DNA of 64,000 nucleotides, from the NCBI RefSeq assembly GCF_056712565.1, contig NZ_CM160072.1, one strand, 5' to 3'. The position numbers and the translations under genes were made by a program. Below are positions 10,856 through 13,622 of the stretch, piece after piece (position 1 is the stretch's first letter; every line of letters starts with the position of its first letter). Under the pieces are notes generated by a model, which was not told the DNA's origin, made no database searches, and worked only from the letters and a program-made list of their open reading frames with translations.

Positions 10856-11857
10856 TCAGAGTTTAGCGAATTTTTCGAGGGTGCGAATAAGCTGCGTGAC
10901 GAAGCCATATTCGTTATCGTACCAGGCGACCGTTTTCACCAGTTGTAAATCGCCCACGGCGGTAATTTCCGTTTGCGTGGCATCAAACACCGAACCGAAA
11001 TGGCTGCCAATGATATCGGAAGAGACTATTTCTTCATCAGTATAACCAAATGACTCGTTATTGTTTGTCGCCTTTTTAAGCGCGTTGTTCACCTCTTCGG
11101 CAGTCACTTTCTTTCCGAGAATCGACACCAGTTCAGTGACCGAACCTGTTTTCACCGGCACGCGTTGCGCATGACCTTTCAGTTTGCCGCTCAGTTCCGG
11201 GATCACCAGACCAATGGCTTTTGCCGCCCCCGTAGTGTGGGGAATGATATTTTCTGCCGCTGCGCGTGAAGCACGTAAATCTTTACCACGTGGGCCATCC
11301 ACCAGTGACTGGGTGCCGGTATAGGCATGAATGGTTGTCATCGTGCCGACTTCTATCCCGAAACTGTCATGCAAGGCTTTGGCCATCGGCGCAAGGCAGT
11401 TAGTGGTGCATGACGCCACGGAAACAATGGTGTCGTTGCCATCCAGAGTGTCGTCATTGACGTTATAAACGATGGTTTTCATTTCACCGGCAGGGGCGGA
11501 AATCAACACCTTCTTCGCGCCAGCATCAAGATGCGCCTGCGATTTCTCGGCGGAGGTATAAAAGCCTGTACATTCGACAATGATTTCTGCGCCTTTCGCT
11601 TTCCACGGAATATTTTTAGCCTCTTTTTCGGCGTAAACCGCGATACTTTTCCCATTAACGATAAGTGAATCTTCCGTATAATCAACGCTCCAGGGGAACG
11701 GTCCGTAGTTTGAATCATGTTTCAGCAGGTAGGCGAGAATTTTTGGGGAAGTGAGATCATTAATAGCGACAACGTCTATGTTGCTTTTGACTTCAAGTAA
11801 TCGACGCAACACCAGTCGACCGATACGACCAAAACCATTAATACCAACTTTACTCAT
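10856..11857 (-). CDS. gapC: glyceraldehyde-3-phosphate dehydrogenase C (intact reading frame)
   Basis: 333 aa uninterrupted ORF, N-terminus [19 protein letters not shown] (NAD-binding GxGxxG), catalytic SCTTNCLAP motif. Confidence 0.85.
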
Positions 11858-12045
11858 GGTCTTCTCCTGTCAGGAACGTTCGGATGAAAATTGATCCTTT
11901 CCAGGCTTAGACCAGGATGGCGGGATGGGCAATCTACATTCTTGCAGCGAAACGTAACGTACTGAAAACAGGTGAACAATATTTAATGAAATTTTAAGAA
12001 AAGCCCGTTATGTTAACGGCAAATTATGTTAAAGCAGGAAATGTT

Positions 12046-12576
12046 ATGGGAAATAAATACTCAAGGTTACAAATCAGCATTCACTGGCTGGTCTTTTTGC
12101 TGGTTATCGTAGCGTATTGCGCAATGGAGTTTCGTGGTTTCTTCCCACGTAGCGATCGGCCCCTCATCAACATGATTCATGTTTCCTGTGGCATCTCAAT
12201 TCTCGTACTGATGGTGGTTCGTCTTTTGTTAAGGCTGAAATGCCCAACCCCGCCGATTATACCTAAGCCAAAACCGATGATGACGGGACTGGCGCATTTG
12301 GGCCATTTGGTGATTTATCTCCTGTTTATTGCGCTGCCAGTGATTGGTTTGGTGATGATGTATAACCGGGGCAACCCGTGGTTTGCGTTTGGTTTGACGA
12401 TGCCTTACGCTTCAGAGGCCAATTTCGAACGGGTTGATAGCTTAAAGTCGTGGCATGAAACGCTGGCGAATCTGGGATATTTTGTCATCGGGTTGCACGC
12501 TGCGGCTGCACTGGCACACCACTATTTCTGGAAGGACAACACACTTCTACGCATGATGCCGCGTAAACGTTCCTGA
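12046..12576 (+). CDS. cybB: cytochrome b561
   Basis: Track ORF 12010..12576; start re-set to the internal Met (MGNKYSRLQISIHWLVFLLV) giving 176 aa as in E. coli CybB; multiple TM helices with conserved His. Confidence 0.85.
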   Translation: MGNKYSRLQISIHWLVFLLVIVAYCAMEFRGFFPRSDRPLINMIHVSCGISILVLMVVRLLLRLKCPTPPIIPKPKPMMTGLAHLGHLVIYLLFIALPVIGLVMMYNRGNPWFAFGLTMPYASEANFERVDSLKSWHETLANLGYFVIGLHAAAALAHHYFWKDNTLLRMMPRKRS

Positions 12577-12585
12577 AGGATATTT

Positions 12586-12650
12586 AAAGAAAACGCCTGT
12601 ACTAAAACCGACCCGTGGTACAGGCGAAGAATACGGGCCTACATCGGAAG
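12586..12650 (-). ncRNA. rydC: RydC small regulatory RNA (Hfq-dependent)
   Basis: Minus-strand sequence cttccgatgtaggcccgtattcttcgcctgtaccacgggtcggttttagtacaggcgttttcttt matches my recollection of RydC, including a terminator hairpin (gcctgtac...gtacaggc) plus U-run; cybB-ydcA intergenic position as in K-12. Confidence 0.6.
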
Positions 12651-12820
12651 CGCCTATTATATTTATTTGTATGACAAATAAAACCATAATCCTTGTCTAT
12701 ACGTCCATCTGGCTTATCTTTAATCAATTCACCCGATCTTTGATCTCATCAACGGTATCAAAATAAACCAGCGTATAACGTTCAAATCGAACATAAGATT
12801 CGATAAATCATGGAGGTTAT

Positions 12821-12994
12821 ATGAAAAAACTGGCACTTATCCTGGTTATGGGAACGCTTGTTTCCTTTTATGCCGATGCCGGGCGCAAACCCTGTTCTGG
12901 TTCGAAAGGGGGGATCTCACACTGTACGGCAGGCGGCAAATTTGTCTGTAATGATGGTTCTATTAGTGCATCGAAAAAAACATGCACTAACTGA
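12821..12994 (+). CDS. ydcA: small secreted protein YdcA (57 aa, signal peptide)
   Basis: ATG preceded by RBS tggagg; MKKLALILVMGTLVSFYADA signal-peptide-like N-terminus; below the ORF-track length cut-off, so located by hand. Confidence 0.55.
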   Translation: MKKLALILVMGTLVSFYADAGRKPCSGSKGGISHCTAGGKFVCNDGSISASKKTCTN

Positions 12995-13038
12995 AGTGTA
13001 AAAGGGGTGCCATGAGAAAATGAATCCGCTAGTCAGAT

Positions 13039-13060
13039 GCGCGGGGGAAAATCCCCGCGC
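13039..13060. terminator. GC-rich hairpin 3' of hokB remnant / ydcA
   Basis: Perfect 8-bp stem gcgcgggg / ccccgcgc with gaaaat loop. Confidence 0.4.
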
Positions 13061-13066
13061 TTGCCC

Positions 13067-13151
<85 letters not shown>

Positions 13152-13177
<26 letters not shown>

Positions 13178-13622
13178 GCAAGGCCCTGGATTTGCCGTTG
13201 TCGCCAGCGAAGTACGGACACTCGCAAGCCGCAGCGCCCAGGCGGCGAAAGAGATTGAAGGCTTGATCAGTGAATCAGTCAGATTAATTGACCTGGGATC
13301 GGATGAGGTGGCAACGGCAGGGAAAATCATGTGCACTATTGTTGATGCCGTCGCGAGTGTCACACATATCATGCAGGAAATCGCCACCGCCTCGGGTGAA
13401 CAAAGTCGAGGCATAACGCAGGTTAGCCAGGCGATTTCTGAAATGGATAAGGTGACGCAACAGAATGCTTCTCTGGTAGAAGAGGCCTCAACGGCAGCGG
13501 TGTCCCTTGAAGAACAGGCGGCACGACTAACTGAGGCGGTGGACGTATTCCGTCTCAACAAACATTCTGTGTCGGCAGAACCTCGCGGAGCTTGTGAACC
13601 AGTTAGTTTTGCTACGGTGTGA
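13152..13622 (+). pseudogene. trg: methyl-accepting chemotaxis protein Trg, C-terminal ~150 codons only
   Basis: 156 aa ORF containing only the MCP signalling-domain tail ([13 protein letters not shown]...[32 protein letters not shown]); full-length Trg is about 546 aa; the first ~10 codons are antisense to the hokB remnant, so the ATG is fortuitous. Confidence 0.6.

Follow-up and report, generated by a model that had tools for sequence, protein, structure and literature searches.

The small RNA RydC has been known since 2003-2005; its Hfq-bound structure has been solved, cfa is established as its main target, and YieP is known to repress it. RydC was described as an H-type pseudoknot, which is seen in the RydC-Hfq crystal structure; there, the UU steps U23/U24 and U46/U47 touch the Hfq rim and the 3′ tail binds the proximal face of Hfq (PMC4337610). 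The S1 mutations G37C/G39C destabilise the RNA in vivo (PMC4337610). An independent RydC RNA has been detected on Northern blots in K-12 and in Salmonella (PMC11340327, PMC4337610), and it is barely detectable in wild-type Escherichia coli under standard conditions (PMC11340327). The targets described comprise yejABEF (Antal 2005, as cited in PMC3985669), cfa (Froehlich 2013, as cited in PMC4337610; also PMC6755755), csgD (PMC3985669), and trpE and pheA (PMC11340327). Pairing between RydC and cfa was validated by the compensatory mutation G-101C, and an RNase E cut was mapped in the cfa leader between G-100 and A-99 (PMC6755755). Regulation of the small RNA gene itself involves YieP, a repressor of the GntR/FadR type, since rydC was derepressed 20-fold in an E. 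coli yieP deletion (PMC11340327); the paper establishing this repression reports no YieP site in the rydC promoter. A YieP motif, atTTGTaTGAcaAAT, was derived by ChIP-exo, with rydC and ydcA among the bound targets (PMC7642389). Everything stated below about expression, Hfq binding and target regulation is drawn from the literature on K-12 and Salmonella (PMC11340327, PMC4337610, PMC3985669, PMC6755755).

Here, we compare with these systems a rydC locus from a stretch of 64,000 nucleotides, called the window throughout (contig NZ_CM160072.1 of RefSeq assembly GCF_056712565.1). A sequence-only reading of this stretch had placed RydC, a regulator of yejABEF/cfa with a terminator hairpin, on the minus strand between cybB and ydcA.

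The window carries rydC at its known place

The whole window was scanned with Rfam 15 at gathering thresholds, which returned two matches, RydC and SECIS_3. The RydC match (RF00505) extends over 12587..12650 on the minus strand and over model positions 1-64 of 64; it is untruncated, with posterior probabilities at maximum, and its 90.5 bits compare with a gathering score of 48 (E = 1.6e-16, calculated for the full 64-kb window). A permissive rescan of the 2-kb neighborhood gave E = 5e-18 for RydC and nothing else noteworthy around rydC; a Mu-gpT-DE match at 11855..11875 (17 bits, E 0.99) was discarded as chance. The sequence-only reading had tied its proposal to an Rfam RydC match at this position, and such a match is present, at full length and with nearly twice the gathering score.

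In the curated annotation of K-12 MG1655, the order is cybB (+), rydC (b4597; minus strand, 65 nt; NC_000913 1491442..1491506) and ydcA (+). The same order is found in the window, where cybB (12046..12576, +) and a ydcA homologue (12821..12994, +) flank RydC on the minus strand and cybB is convergent with it. Once the two loci are brought into register, the interval assigned to RydC equals the 65-nt K-12 feature. The proposed strand thus agrees with the Rfam match and the K-12 annotation, the proposed neighbors agree with the open reading frames of the window and the K-12 annotation, and the function named for the RNA agrees with the K-12 annotation and the literature. The RNA read from the minus strand is CUUCCGAUGUAGGCCCGUAUUCUUCGCCUGUACCACGGGUCGGUUUUAGUACAGGCGUUUUCUU; its +1 is the C at 12650, and its 3′ end lies within the U tract, at 12586/12587. 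The E-value excludes chance, as does the match at 63/64 positions to a gene annotated in the same synteny, and we found no evidence contradicting the RydC assignment. Our sequence comparisons show the identity and synteny of the locus, its potential to form each part of the structure, the promoter with its motif, and the complementarity of the seed to the K-12 cfa leader. We consider it practically certain that this minus-strand interval is the known enterobacterial RydC gene, with the promoter control, pseudoknot and target action proposed below. Its features are collected in Table 1. Two mechanically called minus-strand open reading frames that overlap RydC, 12547..12687 and 12602..12727, have no support as genes.

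Table 1. Coordinates of rydC, its RNA elements and its promoter in the window
Feature	Position	Strand	Basis or remark
rydC, 64-65 nt Hfq-dependent trans-acting small RNA	12586..12650	-	RF00505 and identity to K-12 b4597
5′ seed, nt 1-13, CUUCCGAUGUAGG	12638..12650	-	single-stranded; nt 1-12 invariant in alignment
S1 5′ arm, nt 12-18, GGCCCGU	12633..12639	-	7 standard pairs including G13-U40
S1 3′ arm, nt 35-41, ACGGGUC	12610..12616	-	pairs with nt 12-18
S2 5′ arm = terminator stem 5′ arm, nt 25-33, CGCCUGUAC	12618..12626	-	inverted repeat
S2 3′ arm = terminator stem 3′ arm, nt 49-57, GUACAGGCG	12594..12602	-	inverted repeat
3′ U-rich tail, UUUUCUUU, terminator tract and Hfq proximal-face tail	12586..12593	-	sequence; role from PMC4337610
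Sigma-70 -10 box, TATAAT	12656..12661	-	sequence; 5 nt upstream of +1
21-bp perfect palindrome, TTTATTTGT-ATG-ACAAATAAA	12662..12682	.	inverted repeat; adjoins -10 box

The locus is widespread in E. coli. The 271 nt around RydC are 100% identical in many chromosomes of the species, including that of the type strain ATCC 11775 and those of several ExPEC isolates, and 5415 of 5426 complete E. coli genomes contain the stretch. The 64-nt RydC is single-copy in 5410 of the 5426; 1241 genomes carry the exact sequence of the window, and 4169 differ from it by one to three bases. Between 11 and 16 of the 5426 complete genomes are without the rydC locus, and five records labelled plasmids in complete E. 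coli assemblies carry it. No RNA feature is present at the rydC locus in the PGAP annotation of ATCC 11775, and in a spread sample of other non-K-12 E. coli genomes the RefSeq/PGAP annotation under the RydC match was "none." The element appeared unannotated because the RefSeq pipeline leaves RydC out of the non-K-12 records checked.

Several observations concern the surroundings of the gene. The mechanically called cybB frame (12010..12576, +; 188 amino acids) has its start 36 nt ahead of the annotated one, and annotated cybB encodes 176 amino acids in K-12 and ATCC 11775; the longer frame probably reflects just an upstream in-frame ATG. Between aldA and cybB lies an intact gapC frame for a 333-amino-acid glyceraldehyde-3-phosphate dehydrogenase (10856..11857, -); the ATCC 11775 annotation calls it a type I GAPDH, and gapC is a pseudogene in K-12. 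On the other side, at about 13000..13622, roughly 1.6 kb are absent relative to K-12 between ydcA and ydcI. Lost with this deletion are the 5′ part of hokB, mokB, sokB and about 1.2 kb from the start of trg, a chemoreceptor gene; the interval retains a Hok remnant, yncP with a frameshift and the final ~440 nt of trg. The SECIS_3 match (84.3 bits, 60985..61043, +) covers an in-frame TGA at 60988..60990, through which the open reading frames 60403..60990 and 61039..63450 are joined; their product looks like the alpha subunit of formate dehydrogenase-N (FdnG), with the TGA as the expected selenocysteine site.

Pseudoknot and terminator

All pairs of the two RydC helices are standard in the window RNA (7/7 in S1 and 9/9 in S2), and the helices interleave in an H-type pseudoknot layout. 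Calculated separately, their energies are -9.9 kcal/mol for S1 and -13.8 kcal/mol for S2. The UU steps U23/U24 and U46/U47 and the S1 residues G37 and G39 are all kept, so that, by sequence, the Hfq contact elements (the U-rich tail and the two UU steps) are all found. The terminator hairpin noted earlier by the sequence-only reading corresponds to S2, whose arms form a 9-bp inverted repeat without mismatch (12594-12602 with 12618-12626); on the minus strand, the U tract UUUUCUUU comes next. The transcript would accordingly fold as an H-type pseudoknot of S1 (nt 12-18/35-41) and S2 (nt 25-33/49-57), in which S2 and the U tail would double as an intrinsic terminator and about 11 to 13 nt at the 5′ end would remain single-stranded. 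Hfq would bind the U tail and the two UU steps, as known from K-12 and Salmonella.

The nested minimum-free-energy fold of the 64 nt has -16.1 kcal/mol, which is not significant against shuffled sequences (z = -0.98). Because nested folding cannot represent a pseudoknot, this unremarkable energy is not evidence against structure; the nested structure is wrong and was discarded as a test, since the actual fold is a pseudoknot. A consensus terminator scan reported only a 6-bp sub-hairpin at RydC because the S2 loop (15 nt) exceeds the 8-nt limit of the scan.

For a comparative test of the pseudoknot, genome collections were searched with the pattern CTTCCGATGTN9TNCTTCGCC. This search yielded six true loci, none from outside the genus Escherichia, together with 10 chance matches, where about nine were expected. 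Salmonella and other genera were missed because the fixed T20 of the pattern was too strict. The Salmonella RydC was rebuilt from the primer table of PMC4337610, in which the paired regions are fully primer-covered and nt 21-24 are partly inferred. The resulting alignment held nine RydC sequences in six distinct rows. Over these six rows, the 16 pairs of S1 and S2 give 96 cells, every one of which holds a standard pair; displacing the 3′ partners by one to three columns lowers the proportion to 22-44%. In the primer-rebuilt Salmonella sequence, both sides of three consecutive S2 pairs are altered; variation in S1 is confined to A-U/G-U alternation. The compensatory S2 changes, all of which come from one diverged lineage, Salmonella, lend modest support to S2 pairing. 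Seed nt 1-12 are invariant in 9/9 aligned sequences (among them the window, K-12, five other loci of the genus Escherichia and Salmonella), and the invariant 5′ seed, CUUCCGAUGUAG, lies outside the S1 and S2 helices.

Promoter and predicted YieP operator

The perfect -10 box upstream of rydC is accompanied by no recognisable -35 box, and the rydC promoter has been described likewise (PMC11340327). A consensus promoter scan did not find a full promoter at rydC, because the gene has no -35 box. The published YieP motif atTTGTaTGAcaAAT matches 12665..12679 on the plus strand at 15/15 positions, and this is the sole match with up to two mismatches in the 64-kb window. It falls within the perfect palindrome that adjoins the -10 box, and the palindrome is kept in six loci of the genus Escherichia, with the sequence further upstream diverging. 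From the motif match, the ChIP-exo target list, the 20-fold derepression and the conservation, we infer that the palindrome at 12662..12682 is a YieP operator, predicted to cover -12 to -32 of the rydC promoter. The gene would be read from a sigma-70 promoter and normally be kept off by this GntR-family repressor, which at the predicted operator would block RNA polymerase by occupying -12 to -32.

One base of the palindrome, at 12675, differs between the two strains (TTTATC in K-12 vs. TTTGTC in the window, on the RydC strand). The perfect palindrome of the window is the majority E. coli allele, with 3867 of 5415 genomes identical over 55 nt. We had considered the perfect YieP palindrome as a specialty of the lineage and rejected this idea, since most E. 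coli genomes carry it and K-12 has the variant.

Pairing of the seed with cfa

RydC nt 3-13 pair with UCUACGUCGGA at -109..-99 of the K-12 cfa leader with -16.8 kcal/mol (RNAduplex), and 22 of 1000 shuffled seeds equalled this energy. The cfa gene lies outside the window, and the pairing was computed on the K-12 leader. The 61-nt region around the site is found in 5424 of 5426 complete E. coli genomes; the site itself does not vary among K-12 and two further E. coli lineages, whose leader SNPs lie upstream of it. A literal search of the K-12 cfa leader for the reverse complement of seed nt 1-10, allowing up to two mismatches, gave no match. This search missed cfa because the actual duplex is formed by nt 3-13 and contains a G-U pair.

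The duplex spans the mapped RNase E site. The free 5′ seed would pair with mRNAs, the best documented of which is the long cfa isoform with its leader site at -109..-99. According to the literature, this pairing would mask the RNase E site and counteract Rho-dependent termination, leading to more cyclopropane fatty acid synthase; yejABEF, csgD, trpE and pheA would be repressed by RydC. Within the seed, nt 7-12 (12639..12644, -) read AUG directly followed by UAG, a start-stop pair with no evident Shine-Dalgarno sequence, which is probably meaningless.

The G13 allele and alternative explanations

The window and K-12 RydC are identical at 63 of 64 positions, and the sole difference in the RNA is A13G. 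Over the 144 nt of gene and promoter, five positions differ, one of which lies inside the RNA. The exchange converts an A-U pair of S1 into G13-U40, still a standard pair, and S1 has -9.9 kcal/mol with G13 vs. -10.5 kcal/mol with A13. The G13 allele of the window is carried by about 23% of the complete E. coli genomes, and G13 likewise occurs in E. albertii, in E. whittamii and in one more species of Escherichia. Judged by this distribution, G13 is an old or recurrent, maintained allele; it is not a private lesion, because it occurs in 1241 E. coli genomes and in other Escherichia species.

Such an exchange in S1 could also mark a decaying or inactive rydC copy, in which A13G disables the pseudoknot and leaves an unstable RNA devoid of function. 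RydC is indeed less stable in vivo with point mutations in S1 (G37C/G39C; PMC4337610), A13G costs S1 about 0.6 kcal/mol, and the hokB-trg deletion attests to decay in the neighboring region of this lineage. However, G13-U40 is still a standard pair, and the same G13 is present in E. albertii, E. whittamii, another Escherichia species and 1241 complete E. coli genomes. The seed, S2, UU steps, U tail, -10 box and predicted operator are all intact, and the Rfam score is far over the threshold. We therefore regard a decayed copy as very improbable.

Even less credible is that the hairpin is merely a terminator or 3′-UTR structure of the convergent cybB, with no independent minus-strand RNA: cybB, whose stop codon reaches 12576, finishes only 10 nt short of the 3′ end of RydC, and its transcript would likewise fold the S2 inverted repeat into a hairpin, but the plus strand continues after the hairpin with AAGAATACGG, which is not a U tract (that tract is on the minus strand only), a plain terminator needs no conserved 10-nt 5′ seed, S1, correctly spaced TATAAT or YieP site, and Northern blots show the independent RNA in K-12 and Salmonella (PMC11340327, PMC4337610).

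For an intact RydC, position 13 is of interest as it belongs to both S1 and the edge of the seed-cfa duplex. G13 would pair with cfa U-109 as a wobble, whereas A13 of K-12 gives an A-U pair. Conceivably, G13 might alter the half-life of RydC or the strength of cfa activation and so amount to a lineage-specific tuning of membrane cyclopropanation; we think this unlikely, the evidence behind it being the S1 difference of 0.6 kcal/mol. A covariation of RydC G13 with a change at cfa -109 was rejected, as the cfa site is invariant in the strains read.

Comparison with known RydC systems

The RydC described here is an already known gene at a known place, carrying a common allele. Its value as a discovery is little; the finding is correct but ordinary. 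The small additions are the placement of the YieP motif at base level in the promoter and the location of A13G at a position shared by S1 and the cfa duplex. The first of these, a YieP motif on a palindrome beside the rydC -10 box, gives a base-level prediction of the operator. Annotation-based scans will keep flagging RydC, as RefSeq/PGAP omits rydC in the non-K-12 E. coli records checked.

Two other small RNAs act on the same target leader. The site of ArrS in the cfa leader overlaps that of RydC, and ArrS activates cfa too, whereas CpxQ binds the long cfa leader further upstream and represses it (PMC6755755). Both are unrelated to RydC in sequence and locus, and neither is a pseudoknot RNA; the Rfam scan of the window, with RydC and SECIS_3 as its only matches, did not find them.

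A closer likeness is seen with RydC of Salmonella enterica, the RNA that was crystallised with Hfq (PMC4337610). As rebuilt from the primers, it is identical to the window RNA in nt 1-18 and shares with it the 3′ arm of S1, the topology of the pseudoknot, the UU steps and the U tail. It differs in loop 1, where nt 19-20 are CC instead of the AU of Escherichia, and in loop 2, which has one extra nucleotide. In its S2, CGU/ACG takes the place of UAC/GUA in Escherichia, a compensatory swap of three consecutive pairs. RydC of K-12 MG1655 (b4597) shares the locus, length, +1 and 3′ end with the window and is identical to it at 63/64 positions; the two do not differ in the seed, S2, loops, U tail or -10 box. 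The two loci are distinguished by A13 in the K-12 RNA, by one base of the YieP palindrome and by two further upstream SNPs.
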